Of a DNA stretch of 38,384 nucleotides, positions 79 through 32,496 are shown in pieces. Made by a program: the position numbers and the translations under genes. Position 1 is the stretch's first letter. Each line of letters opens with the position of its first letter. The stretch spans positions 1 to 38,384 of the forward strand of contig JAKQBO010000009.1 of assembly GCA_029559515.1 (NCBI GenBank), in the 5' to 3' direction. Source of the stretch: a bacterium. Lineage in GTDB: Bacteria; Patescibacteriota; Minisyncoccia; Minisyncoccales; UBA1441. The notes below the pieces were generated by a model. The model saw nothing but the letters and a program-made list of their open reading frames with translations. It had not been told where the DNA came from and made no database searches.

Positions 79-291
79 TTATGATTTTTTGTTCAGCTCC
101 GCCAGCAGATCCGATAAAGGCAGGCCGTACCGTTCGGCCACCTGTCCCAAGGATAGTTGGCTGATTTCGTAAGCCGCCAGAGGACAGCTGAGGCAGGGCA
201 GTTGATAGCGGGCTAAAATCTCTGCCGCTCCGGGACGATCGAGAATTTTGGCTAAATTCGTTTCTGCGGTAATTTTTTTCATCTTGGCCAT
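79..291 (-). CDS. Small CxxC protein, DUF1858-like (hybrid-cluster-associated redox disulfide domain)
   Basis: KITAETNLAKIL..PGAAEILARYQLPCLSCPLAAYE..LGQVAERYGL..DLLAELN resembles DUF1858. Start moved to ATG 291 (or 282) because the ORF-track extension to 375 overlaps the divergent promoter and gene. Confidence 0.75.
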   Translation of the reverse strand: MAKMKKITAETNLAKILDRPGAAEILARYQLPCLSCPLAAYEISQLSLGQVAERYGLPLSDLLAELNKKS

Positions 292-300
292 ACTACACTT

Positions 301-309
301 AAGATAGCA
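301..309 (-). promoter_or_regulatory. Extended -10 element (TGcTATCTT) of the CxxC gene
   Basis: TG-N-TATCTT ends 9 nt upstream of ATG 291. Confidence 0.45.
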
Positions 310-330
310 CAAAAGGCTATTTTCGGCCAT

Positions 331-359
331 TTGCTCCGGCCAAGACAATGGGATACAAT
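331..359 (+). promoter_or_regulatory. Sigma70-type promoter TTGCTC-N17-TACAAT
   Basis: -35 at 331-336, -10 at 354-359, 8 nt before ATG 368. Confidence 0.55.
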
Positions 360-367
360 CAGGGATC

Positions 368-1291
368 ATGAACAAGATAATTTACCTGGGAATGGTTATT
401 TTAGCCTTTGGTTTGCTTGGCGCCGGCCCAGCTTCAGCCGAAACAGTTACTGATGTACCGCTCTTTAGCAAGCTCGACCCCGAATCAGCTTCAATGTTGG
501 CAACCACGATTGTCCTTGGTTTTGTAGACGGGCTTAACCCATACTCTCTCTGGGGGCTGGTTTTTCTCTTAGGAATCGTCATGACTGCCGGCTCTCGCTC
601 CCGGGCAGTCATTGTCGGGCTAACCTATTTAGTAGTTGTTGGCCTGACCTACGGCCTGATGACCGTCGGCTTTTTGAATGTTTTTTCTCGCTTCTCTCAT
701 CAGTATCTGCTCCAGGTCATTGTCGGCCTGGTAGCCATGGTTTTTGCTTTAATTAATATTTATGATTATTTCCGCGGCCGGGACAAGTCAACCTTGGTGG
801 CTCCCAAAAGACAGTCTCGACTGCGCCAAAGAATCCAAAAAGTTATGAGCCCGACCAACGGCATCGGCACTCTGATTATCGGAACGGTGGTGGTGGCTTT
901 AGGGATGACAATTCTTGAATTCCCCCTAAGCTTTTCCACGCCTCTAATCTGGACTAATATTATAGCTCGGCATCAAGTTAACTTGCTCGTCTTCCTTCTG
1001 CTGTTGCTAGTATATCTACTGATTTATCTATTCGATGAATTCATTGTTTTCTTTTCAATCATCTTTGCCTTGGGCAAAAATAAGTCCCACCAAAATAGAG
1101 AGTCGGCTCTAAAGTTAATCGGTGGAACCGTTATCTTCTTTTTGGCCATTGCTTTAATTATGGATCTAGAACTCCTGAACACTTTGACCGGATCATTGCT
1201 CCTCTTTGGCTTAGCCTTAGCCGTTTCTTTTTCGATTCTAATAATTTTTCCCGATCGCCGAAAAAAGCTTGAGATTAAGAGCTCCACTTAA
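368..1291 (+). CDS. DsbD/CcdA-transmembrane-like polytopic membrane protein lacking cysteines
   Basis: Signal peptide, then about 7 TM segments. GFVDGLNPYS and LEFPLS align with the family motifs DGxNPC and ELPCT, but neither Cys is present. Confidence 0.65.
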   Translation: MNKIIYLGMVILAFGLLGAGPASAETVTDVPLFSKLDPESASMLATTIVLGFVDGLNPYSLWGLVFLLGIVMTAGSRSRAVIVGLTYLVVVGLTYGLMTVGFLNVFSRFSHQYLLQVIVGLVAMVFALINIYDYFRGRDKSTLVAPKRQSRLRQRIQKVMSPTNGIGTLIIGTVVVALGMTILEFPLSFSTPLIWTNIIARHQVNLLVFLLLLLVYLLIYLFDEFIVFFSIIFALGKNKSHQNRESALKLIGGTVIFFLAIALIMDLELLNTLTGSLLLFGLALAVSFSILIIFPDRRKKLEIKSST

Positions 1292-8660: not shown

Positions 8661-10691
8661 ATGGTTTCTCCTAAGTTGCAAAACATCGTTGTTCGGACTA
8701 TGCAGCGAGACTTGGAGATGTTAGAACGGGGCGAAGTCCCGGGCCGAGCTGGTCGTCCTTCTAGCAAAGCCGAAGAGATGATCAAGCAGGCCCAGTCGGC
8801 CATTCGCCAGGCTGAGGCTGAAAGAGGCGTTATGCGCCCTCCGACCCCTTCTCTGGAAACAGCCCCCGCTCCTTCTTCTAAAGAAAAGGCTCAAAAAATA
8901 GCTGAAGAAAAGAAAGCTGAAGAAGAAAGAAAAAAGATAGCAGAGCAGAAGAAGCAAGAGGAGCTGTCTCGTAAAGAAGCCGAGGCCCCTCGCATAACCG
9001 AAGAAGAAAAGAAACGAGTTGAAGCTGAAGCCCTGCGCCAAGCTGAAGAAGAAAAGAAACAAGCTGATAAAGAACGGTGGCTAGAAATTTTCTCCGAGGC
9101 TGAGAAAATTGCTCAAACTAAAAGCCTCATTCTGCCTGATATCAGTGAGGTCGAAGAAGTCACAGATTCTTTGTTTAAAATCGAGCGAGAGATTGAGCTA
9201 GTTCGCCTTGAGCTGGCAGAAATTCCTGCCCGAGAAAACATTTTGTTACCGGAAAAGAAAAAACTTTCTGAACAAAAAGAACAACTTGAGAGAGAATATC
9301 AAAAAATTATTCACCGGCTAGAGGAATTAAAAATAAAACGGCAACAAACAGAACAGGCTGAGGCTCGAGCAACTACCAGCGACAAGAGAAGGAAATTCGA
9401 AGAACAGCGCTGGCAAGTAGCCAAGAGACAAAGAGAGGTAGAGCAGGAAAAATGGACTAAAAAGGATGAATTAGCCGGACTGAGTGCAGCTTTAGGCCGC
9501 CTAGAAGACCAGGTTCAAGAGCTAGAACAGCGGCGCCAAGGTTATGAAAGCCGTCTTCAGAAACTTAACTCCCAAAAAGAAGAATTAGATATTCGAAAAG
9601 AGAAGATTGATCTGCGCCGGGAGCTAGAAGAGCTAGAGCCTGCTAAAGAAAAACCTATTCAGCAATTAAAAGAACTGGAAAACCAGAGAGAAGAAATTCG
9701 GGAAGAGCTTAGAGCTATTCTAGCCGAGGAAAAGAAAGTCGAAGAAAAGGAAATTGAGCTTCATCAAAAAATTGAAGCCTGCACTAATGACGAGGAAAAA
9801 CGACGGCTCACCAAAGACCGCTGGTCTGTTGAAAAAGAAAGAGAGTCTGTTGAAAAGGATCGTTGGCAAATTGAACAGAAGGTGGCGGCCCTCAGAGAAC
9901 AACAGCGGCAGATCATTGAGCCTTATCGAACCATAGTCAGTAAAGAGCAGCAAATTTATCAGAGATTGAGAGAAATCGATCTTCTGTTGGCTTTTGGCCT
10001 AGAAGCCGGCCGTCAAAAGATCAAACAACGGGCTCAGCAAGAAGAAGATTTAAAAGAAAAGCGCCAGCGCGGAGTTTTAACTCGAACCCATCAGCAGCAG
10101 CTTGAAGCTGAACGCCAGCACCAAGAGGCAGAAGCGAGGAGGAAGAAAGAATTAGAAGCTTTAGCTTTAAAGCAGCAAGAAGAAGCTGAGAAAGAGCGGG
10201 AACGGCAACGCTTAATTAAAGAGCAAAGAGATAAAGCAGAAGCAGAAAAAAGACAAAAAGAAGCTGAAGAAGCAAAAAAGGCGGCTGAAGTCAAAGAAGC
10301 TGAAGAAGCAAAAAGGGCTGCCGAAGCCAAAGAGAAAGAGGTAGCCGAAAAAGAACCCCTCTTCTCTGAAGACCAGTCCATAGAAAAAACTGAAATAAAA
10401 GAGCCGGCCGACGTTGCCACCGCCCGCGACATCTTTATTGAACAACTAATGGCCTCAACCTCTGAAGAGGAAGAGGAAAGAGAGCAGTTTTTGCGCCGAG
10501 TTAGGGGTGAAGGCGCGAGTATTCCGGCCGAAGACCAGCTTGAATCACAGTTAAAAGAGGGTGTTGTTTTCCGGCCGGTTCCGCAGAAACCAAACCGCGG
10601 ACAGAAGATAATCGCTCGCGTCCTGATCGTGCTTTTGTTAATCGGCTTAGGCTTAATAGTCTATCTTATCTTCAGCGGGTATTTACTTTAA
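8661..10691 (+). CDS. Long E/K/Q/R-rich coiled-coil protein with a C-terminal transmembrane anchor
   Basis: About 500 aa of highly charged helical sequence; the only hydrophobic segment is VLIVLLLIGLGLIVYLIF at the extreme C-terminus; N-terminal RTMQRD motif. Confidence 0.8.
   Translation: MVSPKLQNIVVRTMQRDLEMLERGEVPGRAGRPSSKAEEMIKQAQSAIRQAEAERGVMRPPTPSLETAPAPSSKEKAQKIAEEKKAEEERKKIAEQKKQEELSRKEAEAPRITEEEKKRVEAEALRQAEEEKKQADKERWLEIFSEAEKIAQTKSLILPDISEVEEVTDSLFKIEREIELVRLELAEIPARENILLPEKKKLSEQKEQLEREYQKIIHRLEELKIKRQQTEQAEARATTSDKRRKFEEQRWQVAKRQREVEQEKWTKKDELAGLSAALGRLEDQVQELEQRRQGYESRLQKLNSQKEELDIRKEKIDLRRELEELEPAKEKPIQQLKELENQREEIREELRAILAEEKKVEEKEIELHQKIEACTNDEEKRRLTKDRWSVEKERESVEKDRWQIEQKVAALREQQRQIIEPYRTIVSKEQQIYQRLREIDLLLAFGLEAGRQKIKQRAQQEEDLKEKRQRGVLTRTHQQQLEAERQHQEAEARRKKELEALALKQQEEAEKERERQRLIKEQRDKAEAEKRQKEAEEAKKAAEVKEAEEAKRAAEAKEKEVAEKEPLFSEDQSIEKTEIKEPADVATARDIFIEQLMASTSEEEEEREQFLRRVRGEGASIPAEDQLESQLKEGVVFRPVPQKPNRGQKIIARVLIVLLLIGLGLIVYLIFSGYLL
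10257..10328 (+). repeat. 36-bp in-frame tandem duplication (KEAEEAKKAAEV / KEAEEAKRAAEA)
   Basis: aaagaagctgaagaagcaaaaaaggcggctgaagtc followed by aaagaagctgaagaagcaaaaagggctgccgaagcc. Confidence 0.85.
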
Positions 10692-11770: not shown

Positions 11771-12612
11771 ACAAGTTATCCCCAATCGAACCTAATCTAG
11801 CTAACCACACTAGAAATTTGCTGAAGAAATACCAGCTGCGACCCAATAAACGTCTTGGGCAAAACTTTTTAATTGATGACCGCGTTTTAAATGATCTTCT
11901 TCAGGCAGCGGAGCTGACTTCTCAGGACACCGTTTTAGAGGTCGGTTCCGGCTTAGGCACCTTAACCCGGGCTCTCGCCCGCCGAGTTCGAAAGGTTATC
12001 TCTTTGGAAAAAGACCGCCGGCTAAACGATATTCTGGCCTCCGAATTAAATGAATTTGACAATGTTTCTATTCTCAATCAAGACATTCGGACTTTTCTGT
12101 CTCAAAAAGACATCCTCTTCGATAAAGTGGTGGCCAATCTGCCCTTTTATCTGACTTCGCCCCTAATTACCGGGTTGATGAAACTTTCGCCGCCTCCTTC
12201 CCTGATGGTTCTAATGGTTCAAAAGGAGGTGGCTGAAAGGATTTGCGCCCAGCCACCCAAGGCCAACCGAATGGCTGTTCTCTGCCAGATCCAGGCTAGG
12301 TGCCGGCTGGTTCGCCAGGTGCCGGCTCGGAGTTTTTGGCCCGCTCCCGAGGTAGACGCTGCCATCCTGAAGATGAACACATCTGGGATATCGCCCGATC
12401 CGCTTTTAGAAAAATTGGTTAATGCCGGTTTTCGTTCCCCTCGGAAGACCCTAGCTAACAACCTCTCTTCTTTTCCCGGCTTCAATCAAGAAATATTGGC
12501 ACAATGCAACCTAAACCCTAAAGTTCGAGCGGAGGCCTTGACTTTACAAGACTGGAAACATCTTAAAAATTGTTTTCTCGGCCAAAAAAATGTTATAATC
12601 AGGCCAATATGA
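11764..12612 (+). CDS. rsmA: 16S rRNA m6,2A dimethyltransferase RsmA/KsgA
   Basis: KRLGQNFLID, VLEVGSGLG, VVANLPFY, MVQKEVAERI, FWPAPEVDAA, RKTLANNL, RAEAL. Confidence 0.95.
   Translation: MSNKLSPIEPNLANHTRNLLKKYQLRPNKRLGQNFLIDDRVLNDLLQAAELTSQDTVLEVGSGLGTLTRALARRVRKVISLEKDRRLNDILASELNEFDNVSILNQDIRTFLSQKDILFDKVVANLPFYLTSPLITGLMKLSPPPSLMVLMVQKEVAERICAQPPKANRMAVLCQIQARCRLVRQVPARSFWPAPEVDAAILKMNTSGISPDPLLEKLVNAGFRSPRKTLANNLSSFPGFNQEILAQCNLNPKVRAEALTLQDWKHLKNCFLGQKNVIIRPI
12591..12599 (+). promoter_or_regulatory. Extended -10 (TGtTATAAT) for the T4SS-like operon, within the 3' end of rsmA
   Basis: Perfect TG-N-TATAAT 9 nt upstream of ATG 12609; TTGTTT lies 18 nt upstream of the -10 hexamer. Confidence 0.6.
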
Positions 12613-15170
12613 AAAAGAAAACCTTCAGAAGAATTTGTTTTCTTTTGATTGCTATTCTGGCGGTGGTTTTATTTATTGCCCCTGAATTTGTTGGACAAGC
12701 CGAAGCTGACACAATATACGAGAATATCCCAATTGTAGGAGGGCAGGGCGAAGCACTTCCTTTCTGGGCTTGGATTAAAAGACTTGTCCAGGATTTCTTT
12801 TGGTCTCTCCTCTCGTTAGTGTTATTGGTGATTAATTCGGTTTTTCTTGGAGCATTGGCTGTTGCTGAGATGCTCTTTAACGTCATCGCCAGTCCTGGCT
12901 TTATTTCTGAATCATTTACCGGTCCTGACAACCCCTTTGTTTACCCGAACTGGGTTCTGATCCGTGATTTGGCGAATATTGGTATTATCCTGGGCGTTGT
13001 TTTTTGCGGATTGAAAATGGCCTTTGGTCTCGATAGCCGTGCAACGAAGAAGAGCCTAGTTACTCTCATTGCTTTAGCTTTTTTGATCAACTTTACACCT
13101 GTTTTACTCGGCCTTTTAATCGACGCGGCTCAAATTGCCATGAACCAATTTATGGGCCCGGGGTTGACTCAGACGACCGGCATGGCTTCGGGGGTAATGA
13201 AAGCTTTCGCGAATATAAGAGATATTGGAGAAAACCAGATGGTCGCCTTTATTCAGATGTTAACCATGGGAGCAGTCTGCTTGTTTTTGGCTTTTATATA
13301 CTTTGTTTTGGCTATTGTCTTCCTGGTTCGCTACATCGTCCTCTGGGTTTTAGTAATTCTTTCGCCACTGGCCTTTTTAGCCTACGCTTTTAAAGGTGGT
13401 CAGAAGATTTGGAATATGTGGTGGTCTAATTTTATTAGCTGGACTTTTATTGGCGTCCCCATTGCCTTTTTTGTCGCTTTGGCTGGCTGGATGTACGGCT
13501 ATGGCCAGCCTTTATGGGATACAACCGCCCGAAATATGGCTCTTCGAATAAGCGATGAGGGATTGGCTGGAAGTGGCGTTATTTCGTCTGAAGTTTTTGC
13601 GCCCATCTTCCCCGGCATATTAATTGTGATCGGGTTCATGATCAGCCTTAATATTGCCCCGGCTTTCGCTAAGACGGTCATGGATTATACCAAGAAAGGC
13701 GCTCATGGTGCTGCGGCCTGGAGCTGGGGCAAAGTTAGATACCGTACCCGCGATCTTCGAGACAAGAGTAGAAGAGAGGTCCACGCCCGGCACGTTAAGG
13801 AAGACGCTCAAGCTCTGGGCATCAACACTGCCGGCTGGGATGACCCTAAAAAGAGTTATGCTGTACGCGCTCAGGTGGCGAAAGAGCTGCAAGAAAGCAA
13901 CCAGGCTAAAGGAGCGCAGAAGGCTCATGCTGCCAGGTATCTCGACGTTCAGCAAAAGATCGATGAACGCAAGCTGGAGCACTCTCGATTCGCTAAGAAG
14001 TTAAAAGATGCTAGTGAAGAAGAGCTTGATGCTCTGATTTATCAGCCCACGCCTCAGCTTGTGCCGCACACCAAGACCGGGGTTGCCAAAAAGAGGGCTC
14101 TGGCTTTACAGGAAGCCATGAACCGGGATAAAGGCAAGGCCCTGAAAAAGTTCAAGAACCTTGCCTCGTTAAGCGAAGAAGAGATCTTACAGACAGCAGG
14201 TGCTTTTGCTAGCCTGGGGCCGGCTTATCAGGGCACCCTTGAAAATTTTCTGGTTGCGGCAAGCGGCAAGCATGGCAAAACAATTAAAGAGCATGAAGAA
14301 GCGCTCGGCATTGAGAAAGGATCCCTCGATAAGGCGATAAAGAAGCTTAGGGCCGAAGACAACGAGCTCTTGGCTCATGTGTACCAAAATGCTTCAGAGG
14401 AAAACCAACGGCTTCTTCTGGATAATTTGATTGAGGCCGATACCAAGACAATTATTAGCACTATCCGCCGATTAAAGGCAGAAGAGAGAGGGCCTTTTGC
14501 CTTTAAATTAAAAGAGGCTGCTGAAAGAGCCGGTGGCGTCAAAGCAAAAAATTTCCAACATACAGCAAGATTTCTTAATGCACAGTGGTATCTTACCGAC
14601 TATGAAAAAGATCTCACTCCAGAGGCCGACCAATCAAGGATGAAAATCAAACAGATAGTAGAACGGGCTAAGGTGATAGAAAAAGAGACAGACCAGGGCA
14701 AGAGACAGAAAGAGGTTGCTGAAATTGTTTCTAAAATCATCTCTTCGGACAATGAGCAACGATCAGAAATTATGAACCGCATAGCGCCCGTGGCTCCTTC
14801 GGTTCATCAAGAAGCTCTACAGGAAACCATAAGGAAAGAATTAATTGGCCGCGCTAAGCAGATTAGGCGTATGAAAGACGATCCCCGAATGGAGCAAGAA
14901 AGCAAAGACCTCTCGGCTAAGCTTGCCGAGGACTTAAAGAAGATCGGCCCAAAGCAATGGCAAGAATTCCTTAAGGAAGATTTAATCGAGCGCGTTTATG
15001 AATTCCAGCAGAAGATAAAAAACGCCAAGACTTTGGAAGAAAAGAAGAAACTAGGTAATCGCATGATGCAAAGAGATATCCTGGATGAGATTAGCCTTCT
15101 TAATTCTAAAGACCAAAAAGAGATTACTGATCTAATAAACAAAATTTATGATCAAGAAATCCCGGCATAA
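12609..15170 (+). CDS. VirB6/TrbL-like polytopic membrane protein with a long charged C-terminal tail
   Basis: WVLIRDLANI..., LINFT...LIDAA, and LVRYIVLWVLVILSPLAFL...W..WW motifs typical of VirB6/TrbL-like proteins; position upstream of prgI/virB4. Start set at ATG 12609 (ATGA overlap with the rsmA stop). Confidence 0.72.
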   Translation: MKKKTFRRICFLLIAILAVVLFIAPEFVGQAEADTIYENIPIVGGQGEALPFWAWIKRLVQDFFWSLLSLVLLVINSVFLGALAVAEMLFNVIASPGFISESFTGPDNPFVYPNWVLIRDLANIGIILGVVFCGLKMAFGLDSRATKKSLVTLIALAFLINFTPVLLGLLIDAAQIAMNQFMGPGLTQTTGMASGVMKAFANIRDIGENQMVAFIQMLTMGAVCLFLAFIYFVLAIVFLVRYIVLWVLVILSPLAFLAYAFKGGQKIWNMWWSNFISWTFIGVPIAFFVALAGWMYGYGQPLWDTTARNMALRISDEGLAGSGVISSEVFAPIFPGILIVIGFMISLNIAPAFAKTVMDYTKKGAHGAAAWSWGKVRYRTRDLRDKSRREVHARHVKEDAQALGINTAGWDDPKKSYAVRAQVAKELQESNQAKGAQKAHAARYLDVQQKIDERKLEHSRFAKKLKDASEEELDALIYQPTPQLVPHTKTGVAKKRALALQEAMNRDKGKALKKFKNLASLSEEEILQTAGAFASLGPAYQGTLENFLVAASGKHGKTIKEHEEALGIEKGSLDKAIKKLRAEDNELLAHVYQNASEENQRLLLDNLIEADTKTIISTIRRLKAEERGPFAFKLKEAAERAGGVKAKNFQHTARFLNAQWYLTDYEKDLTPEADQSRMKIKQIVERAKVIEKETDQGKRQKEVAEIVSKIISSDNEQRSEIMNRIAPVAPSVHQEALQETIRKELIGRAKQIRRMKDDPRMEQESKDLSAKLAEDLKKIGPKQWQEFLKEDLIERVYEFQQKIKNAKTLEEKKKLGNRMMQRDILDEISLLNSKDQKEITDLINKIYDQEIPA

Positions 15171-15194: not shown

Positions 15195-15614
15195 ATGGAT
15201 AAATTAAGCCGCCGCAGCAATCTAAGCCACATTGAACTAATGAAGACGATTGATCGCCTCCCCCCAGCTTTGGGTGACGCTTATCATTCGATTGAAATGG
15301 TTGATGTTATTGGAAACATCGCTCGGCGTTATAAACTTAACCACGAAGAAGAGTGGGAGCTCTTAGGAATTGTTTACGATGTTATCCTGGGGCTACTGCC
15401 TCCGCCAGCCGTTGAGACTGAAATTAAAAATCGAGTCCGGCTAGAGCCTGAAGAAGCTGGCTTTGTTTCAGGTGAGCTTGACGCTTTCATATTCAATCAC
15501 ATTCGATCAGCATTGAATAAGATTTACGGATTAGAGAAAGCATCAAAAGAGGCAGAAGCAAAGAGTCTTCCGGATAAGAACACCGCTGACCCATATCGTG
15601 AGTCCATTGAATAA
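15195..15614 (+). CDS. Hypothetical protein with C-terminal DPYRE motif
   Basis: Intact ORF within the operon; LGLLPP...EIK and a terminal DPYRESIE resemble conserved CPR hypotheticals. Confidence 0.75.
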   Translation: MDKLSRRSNLSHIELMKTIDRLPPALGDAYHSIEMVDVIGNIARRYKLNHEEEWELLGIVYDVILGLLPPPAVETEIKNRVRLEPEEAGFVSGELDAFIFNHIRSALNKIYGLEKASKEAEAKSLPDKNTADPYRESIE

Positions 15615-15616
15615 TT

Positions 15617-16036
15617 ATGCAGTATCTCGTTCCCCAATTTATTGAGCGCGAGTCTAAAATCGTCGGGCCTTTGAGCTTTAAACAGGTTATTTTTCTGGGT
15701 GCAGCTGGCGGACTAAGCCTGGCGGTCTGGTTTCTTTTGCCGACAGCCGTCGCCATGGTTCTTATCTGCCTGATTGTAGCCGCCGCCGTTGCTTTAGCCT
15801 TTTGGAAGCCACACGGGCGCCCGCTGGCTGAAATTATTGTTTCCGCCTTCCGCCATTCCATTTCGACTCGCCAATACTTATGGCGGAGACAATCAATTGA
15901 AGACCTGCCGATAATTAGCAGCGAAGACGAAAAGACAAACGATGTCAAACTTGACCTCGAAGACCAGCAGGCCTTGATGGAGCTTTCACCGCGGAGCCGG
16001 TTGGAAAAACTAAAAACCCGAATCGAATCTAAATAA
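15617..16036 (+). CDS. prgI: PrgI family (VirB3-like) protein
   Basis: MQYLVPQFIERESKIVGPLSFKQ, two TM helices, then GRPL...P/R.YLWR. Confidence 0.85.
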   Translation: MQYLVPQFIERESKIVGPLSFKQVIFLGAAGGLSLAVWFLLPTAVAMVLICLIVAAAVALAFWKPHGRPLAEIIVSAFRHSISTRQYLWRRQSIEDLPIISSEDEKTNDVKLDLEDQQALMELSPRSRLEKLKTRIESK

Positions 16037-16694: not shown

Positions 16695-18509
16695 ATGTTA
16701 GATAAAATTAAGAAAAAACTTACCAAGGGAAGTAAGCCCGAGACTACCGGGGCCGGCAGTAGATTTGTCACCCTCCATGATTTAATTGCGCCTCCCTCGA
16801 TTCAAGTTAATCAGAACAGTATTGATTTAAGGGGGCGGCTAATTCGGACTATGTTTGTCTTCTCTTATCCCCGCTATCTGTCGGTTGGTTGGCTAACCCC
16901 GATTATTAACATGAATCGGCCGATAACAATCTCCTTTTTCTTTCACCCCGTTGAAACAGCCCCTATTCTTAAGAAACTCAGGAAAAAGACAACTGAAATC
17001 CAAGCCGAATTAATGGAACGCGAAGAGAAGGGCCTGGTCCGTGATCCGGAGCTAGAAACTGCCTTTCAGGATGTAGAAGATCTCCGCGACAAGTTGCGCA
17101 CTGCTCAGGAAAAAATGTTTCAGGTTGGTATTTACTTCGCCATTATGGGGAACAACGAAGAAGAGCTGCGCGATACCGAGGTGGAAATTCGTTCTATCTT
17201 AGAGTCCCGACTGGTTTACACCAAGCCAGCTTCCTTCCAACAAAAAGATGGGTTTTTAACTTGTTCGCCCTATGGTCTTGACGAGCTAATGATCCACACC
17301 CCTATGAATACCTCTCCCCTTTCCAGTGTTTTTCCTTTTGTTTCATTTGACTTGAGTTCTAATGAGGGCATTCTCTATGGTATTAATAAACATAATAATT
17401 CCCTAGTGCTTTTTGATCGCTTTTCACTGGAGAACGCTAACATGGTGATCTTTGGAAAATCAGGCGGCGGAAAAAGTTATGCCGCGAAACTAGAAATTCT
17501 GAGACTGATGATGGAAGGGATAGACGTAGTGATCGTGGATCCGGAGAATGAATATGAGTTTTTGAGCGATGCAGCTGATGGTTCTTTTGTCAAAGTCTCT
17601 CTTAACTCGACTAGCCACCTTAATCCCTTTGATTTACCTAAGATCGGAGTAGATGAAAAACCAGAAGACGCCCTGCGACGCAATGTTGTTGAGCTGGTCG
17701 GCCTATTTAGAATTATGTTGGGCGGACTGACACCCGAAGAAGATGCCATCATTGACCAGGCAATTGTTGAGACTTACGCCGCTAAAGACATTACGCCCGA
17801 TAACAACTTTGACAGAGCTCAGCCTCCCCTAATGAATGATTTCCAGGCTGTTTTAGAGAGCATGGAGGGGGCCGAGTCTCTCAGCCAGAGAACGCGTAAA
17901 TTTACCCGGGGCAGCTATGCCAATTTCTTTAATAACTACACCAATGTCGACATTGATCGCCATTTGGTTGTTTTTGGCATTCGTGATATGGAAGACGAAC
18001 TACGGCCCATGGCGATGTATATCATTCTCCACCACATCTGGAATGAAATAAGAGGAGAGTTAAAGAAAAGAGTTGTGGTCATTGACGAGGCCTGGGTGGT
18101 GATGCAGTCCCCAGATGGAGCTTCATTTCTTTTTGGGATGGCGAAGCGGGCCAGAAAGTACTGGCTTGGCCTGACAACTATTACCCAAGATGTCAATGAC
18201 TTTCTGGGCTCTCCTTATGGGGTGCCGATTCTCAACAACTCCTCCCTCCAGCTACTCATGAAACAGTCGCCGGCTTCAATTGATATTCTAGTTAAAACCT
18301 TTGCCTTAACTCTGAGCGAAAAACATCTAGTACTATCAAGTAATGTTGGCGAAGGGCTCTTCTTCGCCGGATCAAAGAGAGTCGCAGTTCAGGTTGTTGC
18401 TTCATACGCTGAAGACCAGATCATTACTAGCGACCCAGAGGAGGTAATTAAAATTAAAGAAGCGCAACGCGCTCGCAGGAGAGATGAGTTTATTAGGGGG
18501 TGGCGCTAA
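16695..18509 (+). CDS. virB4: VirB4-like type IV secretion ATPase
   Basis: Walker A GKSGGGKS, VDPENEY, LNPFD, Walker B VVIDEAW, RARKY, TQ motif, GEGL. Confidence 0.9.
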   Translation: MLDKIKKKLTKGSKPETTGAGSRFVTLHDLIAPPSIQVNQNSIDLRGRLIRTMFVFSYPRYLSVGWLTPIINMNRPITISFFFHPVETAPILKKLRKKTTEIQAELMEREEKGLVRDPELETAFQDVEDLRDKLRTAQEKMFQVGIYFAIMGNNEEELRDTEVEIRSILESRLVYTKPASFQQKDGFLTCSPYGLDELMIHTPMNTSPLSSVFPFVSFDLSSNEGILYGINKHNNSLVLFDRFSLENANMVIFGKSGGGKSYAAKLEILRLMMEGIDVVIVDPENEYEFLSDAADGSFVKVSLNSTSHLNPFDLPKIGVDEKPEDALRRNVVELVGLFRIMLGGLTPEEDAIIDQAIVETYAAKDITPDNNFDRAQPPLMNDFQAVLESMEGAESLSQRTRKFTRGSYANFFNNYTNVDIDRHLVVFGIRDMEDELRPMAMYIILHHIWNEIRGELKKRVVVIDEAWVVMQSPDGASFLFGMAKRARKYWLGLTTITQDVNDFLGSPYGVPILNNSSLQLLMKQSPASIDILVKTFALTLSEKHLVLSSNVGEGLFFAGSKRVAVQVVASYAEDQIITSDPEEVIKIKEAQRARRRDEFIRGWR

Positions 18510-19035
18510 AAAAAGCCAGGGCGGATTGGAAACATTTACTATCGACATCGCGATTATGTATATTGTCGCCTTTATTTTGGATATGGCCGGAATAATCCTG
18601 GCGGCCATAACCCTTACTATTATCCTAGCTCCGATCGCGATAATCCTTCAATGGATTTTATCTCTCTTGGGTGGTCTGATATTCACCCTCTGGATTGTGT
18701 TTGTGCGGTCACAATCATCTGCCGAAGAAACAAGCCATGAAATTCTCGAGCCAGAAATACCCCAGAAGACAGCTCCTTCTCAGGCGTCATCTCTCGATGA
18801 TTCTGCGCCAAAAAAGCTAAATCAAGCCACCGAAGTACAGCCTACAGTAACGCCGCCTAAAAAACCTCTGGGGAAAAAACCGGGGCTTATGAAAAAATCC
18901 AACCCTTCTTCTTTGTTGATGAAAAAATGGCTGAAGAGAGTTTGCCTCCCCGGGGTGGTTGAGTCAATTCCGATTGTCGGGAAAATATCCTTCACCTGGG
19001 TATTAGCAGTCTATCTTGAGCAAAAAAATGGTTAA
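18484..19035 (+). CDS. Small membrane protein of the T4SS-like locus
   Basis: Hydrophobic N-terminal half, Pro/Ser/Lys-rich linker, C-terminal ESIPIVG..FTW.LAV. Start uncertain. Confidence 0.65.
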   Translation: MSLLGGGAKKSQGGLETFTIDIAIMYIVAFILDMAGIILAAITLTIILAPIAIILQWILSLLGGLIFTLWIVFVRSQSSAEETSHEILEPEIPQKTAPSQASSLDDSAPKKLNQATEVQPTVTPPKKPLGKKPGLMKKSNPSSLLMKKWLKRVCLPGVVESIPIVGKISFTWVLAVYLEQKNG

Positions 19036-21562
19036 GATGCATTTTTTAATAAAAATTTTAATTTTTGCTTTGATTATTTGCCCGGCTAGTGTTCTGGCGG
19101 TGGAAATTCCCAGCGACGATATTGAGACCCTGCCCGAACTGGTTAACACCGTCTTTAGCGTCATATTCGGCTTGTCCGGCATAGCAATCTTCGTTGTTTT
19201 AATAATTGGCGGATTGGGCTATTTAACCGCCGGCGGATCACCGATGTTAATGGCTAAGGCCCGACAAAGGATTATTATGGGCCTGGTTGGATTTGGGTTG
19301 GTTTTTGGCGGCTACCTCATTATCGACCAAATAAATCCTGACATTTTGACCGGAATCTTTACGCCTTGGGATATCGATAACCCCGAGCCGTCCGACCCTC
19401 CAACGATACGGGAACCGGATACTGACACGTATGTCTATCAGGAGATCCCCTTCGGGACAATTTTAGAGACCAAAATATTAGCTAAAAACATAACCTGCTA
19501 TGGGGGAGAAGGGTTGGTTGACTGCCACACTGGGGAGCCGATATTAGAAGAAGAAATTGAGCGGATTATTTATATTATGGCCAAAGAATTCCCTGATATC
19601 TGGGGTGAGGCAACCAAAGAAGACGCCGAATTGGCCTACCTCTGCTACGACTTTGACGACCAGGGAAACTTTACTCAGACCGATCCAATAGGGCACAACG
19701 ACCGGCTTGACTGCATTAGGCGCGTTGTCCAGGCTTTTGAGAGAAAAAGCATGGCCTTAAACAATCAAGTCCTTGAATTAAAAAGACTAACTGAAGCATG
19801 TTCCTGCGGACAGTGTAATTGCGGAGAGTGCGCTGTCTGCGAAGACCCGGCAGAGGTTTGTGGCAACCCTGAGGAATGCGCGCCAGAGGATGAAGCCTGC
19901 TTGCTGGCTATTCAACAGTGCTGGGATTATTGGGAAAACTGTAGTCCATGCGACCCGGCCTATAATAGCACTTGCCCCTGTGGGCAATCCTGCGATGGCG
20001 ATCCATGTGGGGCTCAGCGAGCAGCCATAGACGTTATTCGCCAAAATTTAAACATGGAACAAATCGTTGGAGGACATGATCTGCTCCAAGACAACGAGCT
20101 CGTCAAAGTTTTACCCGAAGATTATGATGAGATGACCTTAATCAACCAGGTGCGCTATCTAGCTAACCGTTTTTTCCCACCCCACATTGCCAGTCTTGAA
20201 GTTGATTTAAGTTATTTAGTTAAGGTCCGGGATATGTATCGAGACCAGTGTAGCTACGGCACTCACCTTTCCCAAGCTAATTTTATGGACTTAATAGCAT
20301 CTCTGGACTCGATTCCTTATGTTGAAACAGAGGTTAACAAGTTTTGTCTTAACGGCAACGAGGCTCGCTGGGGAGAGAGTTGCCCCGAGGAGCAACAAGT
20401 CAGAACAGATTACTGGTGCCACGAATTCAACTGCACCGACTGCGAAGAAGAAGGCGAAGCAAAGCTAGCTTGCGGTGTTTGCAATCTTGACGTTTTAGAA
20501 AAAGGGACTGAGGTGCCTTTTGCTCGGGCCGGTGAAGACAATGTTTCTTACAAGTGTTCCCAATACTATATTAACCAACAAGATGGAGAATTAGACCGGG
20601 AAGCCGACGACGAGCTTGGCATTATGTGCCGTATTCAATCAGATGGCGAACGCTGCCAGGAATCAACCGGCAATCCGGTAACCTTCTACTGTCCTCAGCC
20701 TGAAAGCAATGTTCCGGTCGAAACAACCGAACTAGTCTTAACTCGAGAATTCAACATTGATCACGATGTAGTCAATGGTTACCGAGCTGGCTATATTGAG
20801 CTGGGCCAATTGATTGACAGCAGCCGAGCCTATATCGATGCAATCAGAGCCCCCTTGGTGGGGATGGTTCGGAACGGCGTTCCTAGAATTACCTGTCCTT
20901 CTTTTGATAAAAATGACCCGGATAACCTCTGCCTCTTGTATCTCTTGCCAACGCGATGTACCTGCAATGGCGTCATCCAGACCCAGTACGAACCAGGGGA
21001 TGAATCGCTCTGCAATATCTCTTGCGACACCTGGCACGGCTGTTTGTGTAACGCCTGTGCGGAACCCTGCGATGGCTGCTCTTGTTCAACCTGCCTGCCC
21101 ACTCTTAATCAGCCCGAGGAATATAATCCTTATCCCTGCCCCCAGACTGTTATTAATCAGAGACAAGGCGAAACCACTAATGCTTATGGATTAATCAGGG
21201 AACAGCACGATACTGTTGTTAGCTTAATTCGAGCCACTGGTTTAGCCAACAATCAGCCAAGCCGGACAGAGATGTTTAATCAGCTTCAGGACAGCCAGAA
21301 AAAGTTGCAACGATGCGTTAGTGGCTTCCAGGTTGATTATACTGAAAGAACCGTTGCCCGGGCCGTTAACTGTCGCTATTTGTTGGACAATCAAGCTTTA
21401 GATAAGTGGCAGATTAGTCCCTTTTTCGAAACGTGCTATCCTTATAACAGTGAGAGATTGACCCCTCAGCAGCGAGCTGCCTGTCAGGCTGATCGCAATA
21501 GTCAGGATTGTTTATCTGCTATTCGTAATTTAATGTTTGACTATTTCTGCCTTATAAAATAA
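19028..21562 (+). CDS. VirB2/TrbC-like pilin domain fused to a ~730-aa cysteine-rich extracellular region
   Basis: Signal peptide; pilin motif IIGG..YLTAGGSP....AR.RI....G...YLI...INP; about 53 Cys by manual count. Start at 19028 or 19037. Confidence 0.8.
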   Translation: MVKMHFLIKILIFALIICPASVLAVEIPSDDIETLPELVNTVFSVIFGLSGIAIFVVLIIGGLGYLTAGGSPMLMAKARQRIIMGLVGFGLVFGGYLIIDQINPDILTGIFTPWDIDNPEPSDPPTIREPDTDTYVYQEIPFGTILETKILAKNITCYGGEGLVDCHTGEPILEEEIERIIYIMAKEFPDIWGEATKEDAELAYLCYDFDDQGNFTQTDPIGHNDRLDCIRRVVQAFERKSMALNNQVLELKRLTEACSCGQCNCGECAVCEDPAEVCGNPEECAPEDEACLLAIQQCWDYWENCSPCDPAYNSTCPCGQSCDGDPCGAQRAAIDVIRQNLNMEQIVGGHDLLQDNELVKVLPEDYDEMTLINQVRYLANRFFPPHIASLEVDLSYLVKVRDMYRDQCSYGTHLSQANFMDLIASLDSIPYVETEVNKFCLNGNEARWGESCPEEQQVRTDYWCHEFNCTDCEEEGEAKLACGVCNLDVLEKGTEVPFARAGEDNVSYKCSQYYINQQDGELDREADDELGIMCRIQSDGERCQESTGNPVTFYCPQPESNVPVETTELVLTREFNIDHDVVNGYRAGYIELGQLIDSSRAYIDAIRAPLVGMVRNGVPRITCPSFDKNDPDNLCLLYLLPTRCTCNGVIQTQYEPGDESLCNISCDTWHGCLCNACAEPCDGCSCSTCLPTLNQPEEYNPYPCPQTVINQRQGETTNAYGLIREQHDTVVSLIRATGLANNQPSRTEMFNQLQDSQKKLQRCVSGFQVDYTERTVARAVNCRYLLDNQALDKWQISPFFETCYPYNSERLTPQQRAACQADRNSQDCLSAIRNLMFDYFCLIK

Positions 21563-21568
21563 TCAATT

Positions 21569-23053
21569 ATGCCTAAAAATATATTATTTTTTGCTTTAAC
21601 TGCCTTATTGTTTTTATCTCCATTAGTCGTAGTCGGCGACGCCCAGGTTCGTCAGTTAGAAACAACCTACCCCGACATTCCCGGGGTTGATACCATTGGA
21701 GAAGACGCTACTCTACCGCAATATCTAGAGTATATTTATTATTTCATTATTAGCTTAACTGGGATTGCCGCCTTGATTATATTGATCTGGGGCGGGTTAA
21801 TTTATTTAACCTCAGCCGGTTCGCCCAATAAAATGAAGGAGGGTATTAATCGTATTATTGGCGGACTATCCGGCGTTGCTATTATTTTATTCGCTCACCT
21901 CATTTTAACCACAATCAATCCCCATATCTTTGGCTCAATTACTCAAAAAATAGATCTTCCCGCTGAAGGATATTGCTTAAAAGGAGACCAGGTCTACTGG
22001 CGAGAAGAGTGTCCCGAGACATGGGCTCCTATAAACAATGATACTTGTCAGCAGGTAATCGGCCAAGCTCCTTATACCCACTATAACTGCTGCCGGGTTG
22101 AGAGAATCTATTGTTTCGATCAAAGCGTCAATGATTTGGCTAGAATTGGTTTTATCCCTAAGGAGATAAACTTCCGGAGCAAAGAGCCAAGAATTCACAG
22201 TGTCTTTTTCTTTGAAGAGCCCGATTACCAGGGAGATCAACAGTCTATGATAAACATGAAGAGACAGCTAAACAATGACATTTGGTGGCCGCTTAGTCAC
22301 CTCGGAATTCAGTTTATCAGATCTGTGTATCCAGTAAGGAGAAGCCCCGGGTTTGTTATCTTTCCTACTGACAATTGTTCGTATGATTTTAGCGATTTTA
22401 GTCGCAATATGCCGACTATGGCCTACTCTCGACCAACTTCTCGTTTTGACAAAGAGGCCGTTTCCATATTAAGAGTGCCCCGAGGCGAAGATGAGGATTG
22501 GTTTGATTATGTTTCGTGGGGAGGGGTGTTTTTCTCCTCCGAGGGATATCACGGAGAGTGTCAGATTATTTTTAGCGAAAGGCCTTCTATTCCCGGACAG
22601 GGCCAGAACTGTTTCCTTCCTAGACAGAATTTTCCGAATGCTCAAATTGGCAGTAGAGAGACCCCTCAGAGCGCTTACATCTTTAGACGAAACATCGCTA
22701 ATGATTTTTCAGGCCAAGTCACCTTTTGCCCTTTATTGAATTATGGATCTATAGAGGATCCCAATAATCCGGTTGAATGCCATACTGTTGAAGCTAGTGA
22801 GATTATAAGCCAAAACACAACTGACTCTATCTGGAGAATTAATGATCCGTTAGATCACTGGACGGGAGGAAGACAAGAAAACATTCTTTCTGTAAAAGTT
22901 GACGGAAAATTTCTGGTTGTTCTAAATTCTGGACTAAATTTCACAGGAAGATGTACAGTTATCGATCGAGATACCCCCAATCTAATTGGCTCATATGTTC
23001 TTGGAGACGAAAATCGTGAGATCATGTCCATCGCCATCATCCCCTTACAATAA
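21569..23053 (+). CDS. VirB2/TrbC-like pilin domain fused to beta/gamma-crystallin-like repeats
   Basis: Signal peptide, LETTYP, pilin motif IWGGLIYLTSAGSP...RI.GG..G...LILTTINP; C-terminal FEEPDYQG, FSSEGYHG, NSGLNFTG...SI motifs. Confidence 0.75.
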   Translation: MPKNILFFALTALLFLSPLVVVGDAQVRQLETTYPDIPGVDTIGEDATLPQYLEYIYYFIISLTGIAALIILIWGGLIYLTSAGSPNKMKEGINRIIGGLSGVAIILFAHLILTTINPHIFGSITQKIDLPAEGYCLKGDQVYWREECPETWAPINNDTCQQVIGQAPYTHYNCCRVERIYCFDQSVNDLARIGFIPKEINFRSKEPRIHSVFFFEEPDYQGDQQSMINMKRQLNNDIWWPLSHLGIQFIRSVYPVRRSPGFVIFPTDNCSYDFSDFSRNMPTMAYSRPTSRFDKEAVSILRVPRGEDEDWFDYVSWGGVFFSSEGYHGECQIIFSERPSIPGQGQNCFLPRQNFPNAQIGSRETPQSAYIFRRNIANDFSGQVTFCPLLNYGSIEDPNNPVECHTVEASEIISQNTTDSIWRINDPLDHWTGGRQENILSVKVDGKFLVVLNSGLNFTGRCTVIDRDTPNLIGSYVLGDENREIMSIAIIPLQ

Positions 23054-29785: not shown

Positions 29786-30504
29786 AGTTCGGCATTAAGA
29801 TATACTTCTTGTACGTCGTCGTGATCGCTTAAAGCTTCTAAAAGACGGTTTAACTTTTGCTGGTTGGCTTCATCTAACTGGAGGTTTTTTTGGGGCCGCC
29901 AAATTAAAGAATGTTCTTTAAGCGACAAGCCTGCTTCTTCTAGATGCTTCTTTGATTTTTCTAATTCTTCGGGCTTAACGTAGACAATTAAATATTCTTC
30001 ATCCCATTCAACATCGGTCGCTCCAGCCTCAATGGCTTTTAATTCTAAGTCTGATTTATTTTCTGATGAAGGCGAAACAATTAATTGTCCGGTTTGGACA
30101 AAAAGCCATCGAACTGAACCAGACTCAGCCATCTTTCCACCGTATTTGTTTAAAATACCCCGAACTTCTTCTAGGGTTCGGTTTTTATTATTAGTAATTC
30201 CATCTATTAATAGGGCTGTTTGGCCAGGACCAAAAGCTTCGTAGTTTACCTTAAACCACTCTTCTCGGTCAGCCCCTAGCCCAGCGCCTCGTTGGATCGC
30301 CCGTTCGATGTTTTTATTAGGCATATTAGCCGAGCGGGCCTTGTCAATAGCGTTGCGGAGCTCAAAGTTTGTCTCCGGGTCGGGGCCTCCTTCCCGGGCA
30401 GCGATAGATAATAAGCGAGTCATGCGTGAAAAAACGGCCCCTCTTTTTTTATCTTGAGACTCTTTACGGTGTTTAATAGTTGACCAATGAGAATGTCCAC
30501 TCAT
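29782..30504 (-). CDS. yebC: YebC/PmpR family protein
   Basis: MSGHSHWSTIKHRK, NMP..NIERAI, YEAFGPG, TNNKNRT, DDVQEVY.N. Confidence 0.95.
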   Translation of the reverse strand: MSGHSHWSTIKHRKESQDKKRGAVFSRMTRLLSIAAREGGPDPETNFELRNAIDKARSANMPNKNIERAIQRGAGLGADREEWFKVNYEAFGPGQTALLIDGITNNKNRTLEEVRGILNKYGGKMAESGSVRWLFVQTGQLIVSPSSENKSDLELKAIEAGATDVEWDEEYLIVYVKPEELEKSKKHLEEAGLSLKEHSLIWRPQKNLQLDEANQQKLNRLLEALSDHDDVQEVYLNAEL

Positions 30505-31175
30505 GATTGTTTTAATTTTTTTTGATAATAAACATTGAAAATCTTTACAGAAGATAAGCTTACCGCAACAGCGGCCAGAATCAAGCCAAACCAGGAAGAG
30601 CTTTGCCGGCGCAAGGGGGCAGGTTCTACCACTGAAGAGGCCTGCGCCGATGCCGGCCGTTCCGTCAGGTAAAAATCATCATAGTTTGACTGGCTGTCTT
30701 GGTATTTTTCATTAACTAATTTTCTTTTGATCTGTTGATGCGGCTCGGGATTCGGCAGGCGGAGCCGACCTTCTTGATATTGATTGTTTCCCTGTCCCCA
30801 GGCTAGGGCACTAATTACTTCGCCCTCGGGGCTGATTAAGGCAATGCTGTTGTTGACAGACAGGGTGGCCGCGCTAGACAGATCAGCTTCTAGTTTTTCA
30901 GCAAAACCTTCTTGGGAATTAGCCCAGGTTAAACAATCCTGAGGGCCAATAAGGGTGCCTTTGGGAAAAAGACGCAGAGAGTAGTCTTTGCCAGTAGAGC
31001 TCTTTTTTCTTAATCGATAGCCACTGACATCAATTTCTCGATCCAGGTCATTATATATTCTAACATAATCATGGTTGGCTTGATCACCAGCAATTTGAAC
31101 CTCAACAATTATTAAAGCCGAAGCTGGCCGGGCCACCAGCAACAACAATAAAACAAGAAGACTAACTCTCTTCAT
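30501..31175 (-). CDS. Exported lamin-tail-domain-like protein with C-terminal TM
   Basis: Signal peptide from ATG 31175 (MKRVSLL...PASA), LIIVEVQIAG...DYVRIYN....IDVSGYRL, ..D...N.DDF; C-terminal hydrophobic segment. Confidence 0.7.
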   Translation of the reverse strand: MKRVSLLVLLLLLVARPASALIIVEVQIAGDQANHDYVRIYNDLDREIDVSGYRLRKKSSTGKDYSLRLFPKGTLIGPQDCLTWANSQEGFAEKLEADLSSAATLSVNNSIALISPEGEVISALAWGQGNNQYQEGRLRLPNPEPHQQIKRKLVNEKYQDSQSNYDDFYLTERPASAQASSVVEPAPLRRQSSSWFGLILAAVAVSLSSVKIFNVYYQKKLKQS

Positions 31176-32496
31176 TAATCTGAACCTTGGTTGTTGCTCG
31201 ATGTACTTCATCCAAGGTTGAGATATGGTTAACTACTCGAACCAAACCATCATAATACATAGGAACCATACCCTTTTCAATGGCCCTTTTTCTTAGGGCG
31301 GGAATGCTGGGTGATTGCTGGATTAATTCTTCCATTTCGTCGTCCACAAAGAAAGCTTCAAAAATTCCAATTCTTCCCCGATATCCAGTGAAGTTGCAGG
31401 AGCGGCAGCCTTCGGGATTGGCATAAAATATCTTAGTGTCTTTATTAAAATCAGGCACTTTGACTGTTGAGGGCAGGGCGGCCAGTCCATCCTTGATCTC
31501 TTTGAAGTCCTGTTCGTTTGGTTTTCCCAATTGTCCGCACTCCAGGCAAACTCGTCGAATTAAACGCTGAGCAATGGCGACATTCAGGGCGGGAGCAATG
31601 TTATGAGGCTTCTCTCCCAGGGCTTCTATTCGAGCAACCGTTCCGGCCGCATCATTAGTATGAACAGTGCTAAATACTAAATGGCCGGTCATAGAAGCTT
31701 GGAGGGCAATGTGGGCCGTTTCATAATCTCGAATCTCGCCGACTAGAATTACATCTGGATCTTGGCGGACGATAGCCGCCAGCCCCTTTGCAAAGTCATA
31801 ACCTTGCTGGGGATTAACCTGGGTCTGAGAAACTCCCGGTAGCTGATATTCGATCGGGTCTTCAATGGTGATGATCTTAATCTCAGGATGATTAATCTTT
31901 TTAAGAAAAGCGTAAAGAGTCGTTGTTTTTCCAGATCCGGTCGGACCGGTCAAGATAATCATGCCATTTGGCTTTTTTAACTCCTTCAGAATGTCCTGAT
32001 GCAGGTCGGGGCGGAGACCCAATCCCTCAATGTCTAATAAGGCAACCGGATCGAGGATTCTCATCACAATTGTTTCGCCATAACTGGAAGGAAGGACCGA
32101 GGTCCTTATCTCAATTTCCCGGCCCTCCTTCTCAAAATCAATGCCGAACCTTCCGTCTTGAGCCTTTTTGCTGATGTTTAATTTTAACTTAGCTAAAAAC
32201 TTAATTCGGGAAACGATCTGTCGATATAACTTTAAGGGCAATAAGTCAACCGTCTGCAAAATACCGTCAATTCTTAATCGGAGGCGGGCCTTTTCTGCCT
32301 CAGGCTCAAGGTGAACGTCGGAAGAGCCCAGGGTAATTGCGCCGCCCATAATAATGTCAACTAGGCGAGATATGCTTTCCTCGGAGTTGTAGCGGATTAG
32401 CCTTTTCAGGTCGCGAATACTATACAAACGAGGCAAGATTTCATCAGAAACCTGAGGATCAATTTTGACGTTGCGCTCAATGTCTTTATCGTCCAT
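31162..32496 (-). CDS. pilB: GspE/PilB family pilus assembly ATPase (short N-terminus)
   Basis: SDVHLEP, RLRIDG, QDGRF, GPTGSGKTT, TIEDPIEY, RQDPDVILVGEIRD, TGHLVFSTVH, CxxC...CxxC, GYRGRIG. Confidence 0.88.
   Translation of the reverse strand: MDDKDIERNVKIDPQVSDEILPRLYSIRDLKRLIRYNSEESISRLVDIIMGGAITLGSSDVHLEPEAEKARLRLRIDGILQTVDLLPLKLYRQIVSRIKFLAKLKLNISKKAQDGRFGIDFEKEGREIEIRTSVLPSSYGETIVMRILDPVALLDIEGLGLRPDLHQDILKELKKPNGMIILTGPTGSGKTTTLYAFLKKINHPEIKIITIEDPIEYQLPGVSQTQVNPQQGYDFAKGLAAIVRQDPDVILVGEIRDYETAHIALQASMTGHLVFSTVHTNDAAGTVARIEALGEKPHNIAPALNVAIAQRLIRRVCLECGQLGKPNEQDFKEIKDGLAALPSTVKVPDFNKDTKIFYANPEGCRSCNFTGYRGRIGIFEAFFVDDEMEELIQQSPSIPALRKRAIEKGMVPMYYDGLVRVVNHISTLDEVHRATTKVQINEES

Follow-up and report, generated by a model that had tools for sequence, protein, structure and literature searches.

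The gene that we call PIL848 lies on the forward strand of a 38,384-nucleotide stretch of DNA (contig JAKQBO010000009.1, assembly GCA_029559515.1; hereafter the window) from a bacterium of the Patescibacteriota (GTDB lineage Minisyncoccia, Minisyncoccales, UBA1441). It encodes a VirB2-like pilin fused to a large Cys-rich ectodomain. In a Patescibacteria lineage whose genomes measure 0.4-0.5 Mb, it belongs to the conserved core of a chromosomal type IV secretion system (T4SS) of monoderm type that lies close to dnaA. The ectodomain of about 710 amino acids (aa) is made of two similar units, in each of which a strand carrying IPxG precedes two long helices that are separated by a Cys cluster and a PCP motif, and of a beta-rich Cys subdomain between the units. 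The T4SS and the pilin family are known; what appears new, as far as the literature searched goes, is the fused or split two-hairpin Cys-rich ectodomain, together with a superfamily of 'pilin + EIPxG + Cys cluster' proteins that is absent from Pfam and NCBIfam. Residues are numbered throughout in the 848-aa frame, which begins at a TTG codon, unless the 844-aa form is stated.

A first-pass annotation, made from the sequence alone, had reported an open reading frame (ORF) at 19028..21562 with about 50 Cys. Our count is 53 in the 844-aa form (6.3%), 52 of them after the predicted signal peptide, the highest Cys share among 432 crude ORFs of the source genome (457 kb, 94% complete, mean Cys content 0.85%). 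The ATG start and the stop codon of the preceding gene overlap (ATGGTTAA). The motifs listed by that annotation are all found in the translation at the positions it gave: EIPFG begins at 19442 (E143) and IELGQLID at 20795 (I594), TFYC ends at 20692 (C559) and DYFC at 21550 (C845), and DPC or YPC comes after each of the dense Cys clusters CSCGQCNCGECAVC (262-275) and CLCNACAEPCDGCSCSTC (676-693), with a helix behind it. A word-indexed search retrieved 11 full-length homologues of 708-882 aa and 38-87% identity, and the alignment of these 12 sequences contains 42 invariant Cys columns. Near-identical copies were found in metagenomes from activated sludge, landfill, an anaerobic digester and groundwater; no RNA data set was among the listed sources of such copies. 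In four metagenome runs from four studies, single nucleotide polymorphisms (SNPs) amounted to 59, of which the 40 listed comprise 26 synonymous and 14 nonsynonymous changes; none of these 40 alters a Cys, and no indel was seen in any of the four runs. One contig of run X3 that skips positions 20215-20606 (depth 6 versus 63, 32-letter side) was treated as deriving from another organism or from an assembly artefact. Homologue conservation and the SNP pattern rule out that PIL848 is an artefact or non-coding; it is a genuine gene, maintained by purifying selection.

The linkage to T4SS genes stands as well, PIL848 being located behind genes for PrgI/VirB3-, TrsD- and VirB4-like proteins. As far as the contigs reach, the order KsgA, 866-aa protein, 139-aa protein, PrgI, TrsD, VirB4, small membrane protein, PIL848, 494-aa pilin, R3H-YidC-RnpA, DnaA is kept in all 8 related loci, and the order of the T4SS genes is also found in 4 more distant ones (12 of 12 in total). 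These related loci come from metagenome-assembled genomes labelled Candidatus Saccharibacteria or Patescibacteria group. In the window, the 494-aa PF18895 protein is followed by R3H, YidC and RnpA on the other strand and then by DnaA and DnaN. PIL848 orthologues from the related loci are 37-51% identical, like other membrane parts of the system, versus 67-88% for VirB4. The 866-aa protein that opens the operon may be a VirB6-like channel protein. The VirB4 function is divided between a TrsD-like N-terminal protein (217 aa) and an ATPase (606 aa), and a match to the coupling-protein-like TraG-D_C lies elsewhere in the source genome (G000:C9:27742-27936).

The N-terminus of PIL848 had been described as a VirB2-like T4SS pilin, and this is borne out by Pfam family PF18895 (T4SS_pilin), which matches residues 38-97 above its gathering threshold (E 7.1e-8, 32.9 bits versus a cut-off of 26.6) and scores 36.9 bits in a six-frame search of the genome; PF04956 (TrbC/VirB2) gave no match in the Pfam scan at E <= 0.1. 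Hydropathy windows delineate hydrophobic stretches at about 5-30, 41-72 and 85-102, and concur with the AlphaFold model in placing a signal helix ahead of helices 39-71 and 76-106. With 844 or 848 aa, PIL848 falls outside the size range of PF18895 pilins that consist of the hairpin alone (about 70-190 aa). From the signal peptide and the two helices joined by a basic loop (KARQR), the positive-inside rule predicts, as the first-pass annotation had supposed, that the C-terminal Cys-rich region is extracellular rather than cytoplasmic; sequence and model point the same way.

That annotation had also supposed that the ectodomain is not an already characterised domain, and the searches agree. Scans with Pfam (E <= 0.1) and NCBIfam (E <= 0.01) returned pilin families only, a sequence search of the Protein Data Bank (PDB) with the PIL848 profile gave a chance match (E 0.91), Foldseek with the full model found nothing at E <= 0.001 (best E 1.8 in the PDB and 0.72 in BFVD), and a search of the ESM Atlas with residues 135-848 gave no usable match. 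The AlphaFold2 model, built from a 35-row alignment, has a mean predicted local distance difference test (pLDDT) of 79.8 and a predicted template modelling score of 0.74. It contains long helices at 230-260, 375-411, 596-626, 710-739 and 750-766 and a beta-rich region at 436-560, and predicts that four long helices, drawn from both modules, pack in one bundle. The best VIA-align rows are single four- or five-helix bundles over 227..741 (top Z 10.7, root-mean-square deviation (rmsd) 2.8, 185 residues aligned); bundles of the talin rod and of chemoreceptor sensors score Z 8-10. Residues 36..108 match the archaeal conjugation pilin 8dfu_B at Z 7.6, which is within the range common for helical models. 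In the second module, the Cys cluster is followed by YPCP and helix E (710-739), and DYFC closes the C-terminal domain. Cys cluster 1 (window positions 19799-20017) is an indel hot spot whose length varies from 32 to 104 aa among orthologues; two homologues carry enlarged Asp/Pro/Cys-rich repeats there while the length of the remaining protein is kept.

The relatedness of the two modules, claimed in the first-pass annotation, stands in part. An hhalign comparison of residues 140-565 with 566-848 based on the 12 close sequences aligned only 28 columns of the Cys clusters, at 38% probability. With slices of a more diverse alignment (32 rows kept in each, from a 35-row alignment including distant relatives), the match extended over 149 columns (84.7% probability, E 6.7e-6, score 46.6) in the order helix, Cys cluster, PCP motif, helix. 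Twenty column-shuffled controls scored at most 17.2, but the reversed control reached 31.8, so that a large share of the signal stems from composition and from the symmetry of the layout. An internal duplication, as judged from these profile comparisons, is moderately supported.

Gene organisation lends independent support to the two modules. In two genomes (G523 and G489, loci L018 and L019), the position of PIL848 is occupied by two adjacent genes, while a third (G466, L020) has a fused protein of 864 aa. The first gene of the split pair encodes the pilin and module 1 (384 or 472 aa, ending in ATLYFPEQEYE in G523 and ATFYFPKEEYE in G489) and the second encodes module 2 (305 or 359 aa), which begins KIPIGEA.DEAE and has an N-terminal hydrophobic anchor of its own. 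The TFYC boundary proposed in the first-pass annotation is thus the exact point at which the gene is split in other lineages. Modelling predicts an interaction between the two halves: for the ectodomains of the G489 pair, the interaction prediction score from aligned errors (ipSAE) was 0.77, versus 0.00 for the best of three controls. Of 157 solved complexes 116 attain the ipSAE mark applied, as do 2 of 215 mismatched pairs, a calibration that is rough given that our own alignments were used. Contact agreement between runs was at least 46% and partner pLDDT at least 57, and the predicted interface involves the long helices of both halves and the EIPIG helix. As no similar complex has been solved, the result is unlikely to be recall by the predictor; it remains a model.

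PIL848 orthologues were found in 5 of 5 genomes sampled from its own family, the match in one of them (G409) being a 169-aa frame that covers the N-terminal part only. Further out, a single-sequence search with the ectodomain matched 2 of 401 genomes of the class, the source genome included (E <= 1e-5), and a profile search matched 57 of 201 genomes of the order at E <= 1e-20, mostly via the pilin and EIPxG part. Among 1.84 billion representatives, the profile retrieved 30,466 at E <= 1e-3, most of them through the pilin part; this number falls to 2,013 at E <= 1e-10 and to 34 at E <= 1e-30. We scanned with local segment hidden Markov models (HMMs) the best 148 representatives outside the 12-member family, a score-ranked set that is biased to long matches. 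Long forms are common among them (141 of the 148 have at least 300 aa, median 608 aa) and 99 contain at least 3% Cys. A pilin was found in 142 and a pilin with the helix/Cys-cluster segment in 96, a common start ('pilin + EIPxG + helix + Cys cluster') that recurs in proteins of 240-1475 aa; 23 combine a pilin with the C-terminal segment of module 2 and 6 contain parts of module 2 without a pilin. The EIPFG element is common to many other pilin-fusion proteins, most top matches reaching profile positions of about 145-155. When the 12 family members are added, 110 of the 160 proteins contain E[IVLM]P[IFLVM]G, versus 3 of 160 shuffled ones, and 34 contain it at least twice. Pfam scans of 14 distant members gave only the pilin, besides a sub-threshold PKD domain in one (22.5 versus 23.5 bits) and, at the N-terminus of another, NosD/beta-helix. 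Thirty-one of the 148 carry 2-6 tandem PF18895-like pilin domains in a single ORF (e.g., P0044, P0059, P0115), unlike the published arrays of separate pilin genes.

The source genome encodes other pilin fusions. The 494-aa pilin is the next gene after PIL848 in 10 of 12 related loci, both exceptions being at a contig end. Its AlphaFold model (pLDDT 78.9) has crystallin domains at 132-258, 260-372 and 382-494; Foldseek matches it to gamma-crystallins (E 1.2e-5, probability 1.00), as expected of a double Greek-key fold, and VIA-align gives Z 12.5 and rmsd 3.2 for 170 residues aligned over 260..494. A third fusion (G000:C13:12900-13988, or L003:1234-2322) joins PF18895 to divergent InlB B-repeats (Flg_new_2, E 2.3e-15). 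GWSG.C-type repeats of this protein also make up two Cys-rich proteins encoded on contigs C1 (1080 aa) and C21 (765 aa). The remaining pilins are short (116 and 155 aa, both on contig C5) and could build a shaft. Hence 3 of the 5 PF18895 proteins of the genome carry different extracellular domains, namely that of PIL848, crystallin domains and InlB B-repeats, which agrees with the earlier view of the pilin as a carrier. PIL848 itself does not fit the variable part of that view: having one orthologue per genome at a constant operon position, it is a fixed core gene and not variable cargo. In some lineages, the pilin genes of the T4SS operon are consequently not simple pilins, one bearing a predicted Cys-rich helical stalk and the next crystallin domains.

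The suggestion that this is an undescribed system did not hold. According to the available parts of the reports, dnaA-proximal, monoderm-type T4SSs with VirB2-like pilins are already published for Patescibacteria (PMC12102498, PMC12857230), pilin arrays included (PMC12102498, PMC10633639). Epibiotic growth of Southlakia epibionticum is described as dependent on its T4SS and on the short pilins of this system, both being essential (PMC10633639), and the function of Patescibacteria T4SSs in general as completely unknown (PMC10633639, PMC11665869). Such a T4SS is thus essential in the only Patescibacterium studied by genetics, and PIL848 bears on the question of what it shows to the host. PIL848 resembles the PF18895 pilins of these reports (PMC12102498; SEML1_0014-0019 of Southlakia, PMC10633639) in its signal peptide, two helices, basic loop, HMM match, linkage to PrgI/VirB3 and VirB4 and proximity to dnaA. 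Those described in the parts covered have about 100-185 aa (312-558 nucleotides), whereas PIL848 adds a Cys-rich ectodomain of about 710 aa without a known family. We found no description of a pilin fused to a large Cys-rich ectodomain, or of the wider 'pilin + EIPxG + Cys cluster' superfamily, in the literature searched, which does not cover the supplementary VirB2 lists of PMC12102498, where long ones may be included. The Mbov_0395-family pilin-like proteins of Mycoplasma integrative and conjugative elements (NF045849) match the hairpin weakly (E 3e-4, 20.4 bits, below the 40-bit cut-off); they have about 80 aa and, unlike PIL848, no ectodomain.

Functional analogies can be drawn with other filament-associated proteins. 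VirB5 and TraC, the tip or stalk proteins of VirB2 pili in Gram-negative T4SSs, are mainly helical, elongated and extracellular; PIL848 differs from them in that its helical part is covalently fused to a pilin and is Cys-rich. No VirB5-family match to PIL848 was found in the Pfam and NCBIfam scans, nor any VirB5 entry among the 50 listed VIA-align fold matches, which are generic helical bundles and hairpins with Z of 10.7 or less. Minor pilins with large C-terminal domains sit at the tips of type IV pili and of the pseudopili of type II secretion systems (T2SS). They would share with PIL848 a pilin-like anchor bearing a bulky domain that fits only at a filament end, although type IV pilins form a different class (a single N-terminal helix, processing by a prepilin peptidase) and serve a different machine.

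The role that we tentatively favour, at slightly less than even chances, is that of a minor pilin which would sit at one end of the T4SS filament (its tip or its base) or where the machine opens, and would show a rigid helical stalk with Cys-rich knobs to the host envelope. The hairpin would be inserted by Sec/YidC, leaving the ectodomain outside, and would be handled by the VirB4/VirB6-type machine like the short pilins of the genome. As the ectodomain cannot fit on every pilus subunit, PIL848 would have to be a minor pilin at the tip, as a VirB5-like cap, or at the base. The stalk, stabilised by disulfides or metal, would meet the host cell envelope beside the crystallin-bearing pilin. Several observations weigh against such a role. 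The pilus in this organism, the entry of PIL848 into it and host contact are all inferred. The Cys clusters are modelled at pLDDT below 50 (265-273, 313-326, 650-706), and VIA-align Z scores of 10.7 or less are in the range that the tool rates as common for helical models. The fixed position, the 42 invariant Cys and the lack of hypervariability apart from the length of cluster 1 suit a structural part at least as well as an adhesin. Finally, as far as its published account covers, the characterised Saccharibacteria system has only short pilins of 312-558 nucleotides (PMC10633639), so that the essentiality found there is not simply transferable to PIL848. A bolder version is that the Cys-rich bundle is a T4SS cap which contacts or penetrates the host and replaces VirB5, either continuous with the pilin or, in split lineages, formed by two proteins that interlock, and belongs to a very large undescribed 'pilin + EIPxG + Cys-cluster' superfamily of surface proteins that would serve ultrasmall epibionts to dock and to draw in host material; we consider this combination improbable, if worth stating.

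Somewhat unlikely in absolute terms, and nonetheless ranked nearly as likely as a minor pilin, is a static part of the envelope-spanning T4SS (a stalk, cap or cell-wall conduit). In that case the hairpin would be a mere anchor beside the channel, the role would be analogous to that of the VirB5/VirB6 stalk or of VirB8-type parts, and the protein would never leave the cell surface on a filament. One orthologue at a constant position after VirB4 and the small membrane protein in 12 of 12 loci, a divergence like that of PrgI and the 866-aa protein, the invariant Cys and the strongly conserved helices are what such a part would show, and the plain transmembrane anchor of module 2 in the split form would be needless for a pilus-borne subunit. 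On the other hand, PIL848 retains a full PF18895 hairpin with the conserved INP, a flexible Pro-rich linker separates this hairpin from the ectodomain, and the surface domains on the hairpins of the paralogues (crystallin, InlB-type) suggest display more than the construction of a channel. The same linker would suit an effector or toxin that is cleaved there and set free on or inside the host, the hairpin being no more than an export handle, and reviews, in the parts available, speculate that Patescibacteria T4SSs deliver effectors (PMC11665869). We regard this as very improbable: Pfam, NCBIfam and PDB sequence searches gave no match to any enzyme or toxin family, there is one invariant orthologue per genome instead of a variable repertoire, module 2 has its own membrane anchor in the split form, and the predicted fold is a rigid bundle.

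A separate issue, which concerns chemistry and is combinable with either a minor pilin or a static part, is whether the Cys residues form disulfides or bind metal. The Cys clusters are possibly, though not probably, metal sites (Zn, or of Fe/S type), which would make PIL848 a metal-stabilised or a metal- or redox-handling surface protein. Several invariant CxxC motifs suggest so at the level of sequence pattern, among them C473-x2-C476-x9-C486-x2-C489 and HGCxCxxCxxxCxxCxCxxC at 674-693. The clusters are, moreover, the least confidently modelled parts, and the habitats where near-identical copies occur are largely anoxic. The DsbA and VKOR genes that the first-pass annotation proposed to look for were not found in the genome (94% complete), nor were DsbB, Thioredoxin_4 or DsbD_TM; among 12 genomes of the family, none has VKOR and none has Thioredoxin_4 above the cut-off. 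Other observations favour disulfides. C767 and C845 are missing together in 3 of 12 sequences and Cys are gained as pairs at 652/694 (one sequence) and 653/695 (two sequences), the pattern of joint gain and loss that disulfides would be expected to give; the core Cys count is even (42); and a membrane-anchored protein of thioredoxin fold is encoded on contig C8. According to the part of the source available, Candidate Phyla Radiation (CPR) bacteria in general are enriched in an MdbA-like oxidoreductase, which again favours disulfides, and in VKOR (10.1101/335083). The C8 protein (G000:C8, L021:1102-1740; 212 aa, PF00085, E 1.2e-5, monothiol WCGYT) is the sole candidate found for extracytoplasmic thiol chemistry. 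For the favoured minor-pilin role, the lack of canonical disulfide enzymes among those searched for and the largely anoxic habitats make it less easy to account for a stalk that would contain some 26 disulfides. It is puzzling that a 0.46-Mb genome keeps 42 invariant, predicted extracellular Cys in one protein without any of the canonical disulfide-forming enzymes searched for. The ectodomain offers a concrete, expressible target for structure determination, disulfide or metal mapping, localisation and host binding.

Table 1. Features of PIL848 and of the surrounding T4SS operon, in window positions.
Feature	Position	Strand	Remarks
866-aa protein	12570-15170	+	First gene of the T4SS operon; no family match
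139-aa protein	15195-15614	+	
PrgI/VirB3-like protein	15617-16036	+	
TrsD-like protein, 217 aa	16039-16692	+	
VirB4-like P-loop ATPase, 606 aa	16689-18509	+	
183-aa membrane protein	18484-19035	+	
PIL848, whole gene	19028..21562	+	844 aa from ATG at 19028; 848 aa from TTG at 19016; basis: ORF and 11 full-length homologues
Predicted Sec signal peptide (MVKMHFLIKILIFALIICPASVLA, then VE)	19028..19099	+	Hydrophobic N-terminus; putative cleavage site from sequence
VirB2-like pilin hairpin (helices 39-71 and 76-106, basic loop AGGSPMLMAKARQR, ends in conserved INP)	19127..19351	+	PF18895; helices from the model
Pro/Asp-rich flexible linker (residues 113-137)	19352..19426	+	pLDDT <50 at 117-129; mean pairwise identity 0.29
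YQEIPFGTILE..ILAKNI.C element (strand and short helix)	19427..19540	+	Best-conserved piece; mean identity 0.68
Hairpin 1: helix A (230-260), Cys cluster 1 (262-334), DPC, helices to 411	19703..20248	+	
Beta-rich Cys subdomain (441-565)	20336..20710	+	Invariant CxxC-x9-CxxC (473-489); ends TFYC, where split forms stop
Module 2 (566-848): IELG, helix D (596-626), Cys cluster 2 (about 627-709)	20711..21559	+	
Second pilin fusion, 494 aa: PF18895 hairpin and three betagamma-crystallin domains	21569..23053	+	

Two further regions of the window deserve mention. Upstream of the T4SS operon, a 676-aa coiled-coil protein (8661-10691, forward strand) gave weak SMC/APG6 coiled-coil matches only. On the reverse strand, at 30501-33578, genes for a 236-aa lamin-tail-domain protein, a 444-aa T2SSE/PilB-type ATPase and a 360-aa protein without annotation are clustered; they probably belong to a locus of type IV pilus or T2SS-like kind.

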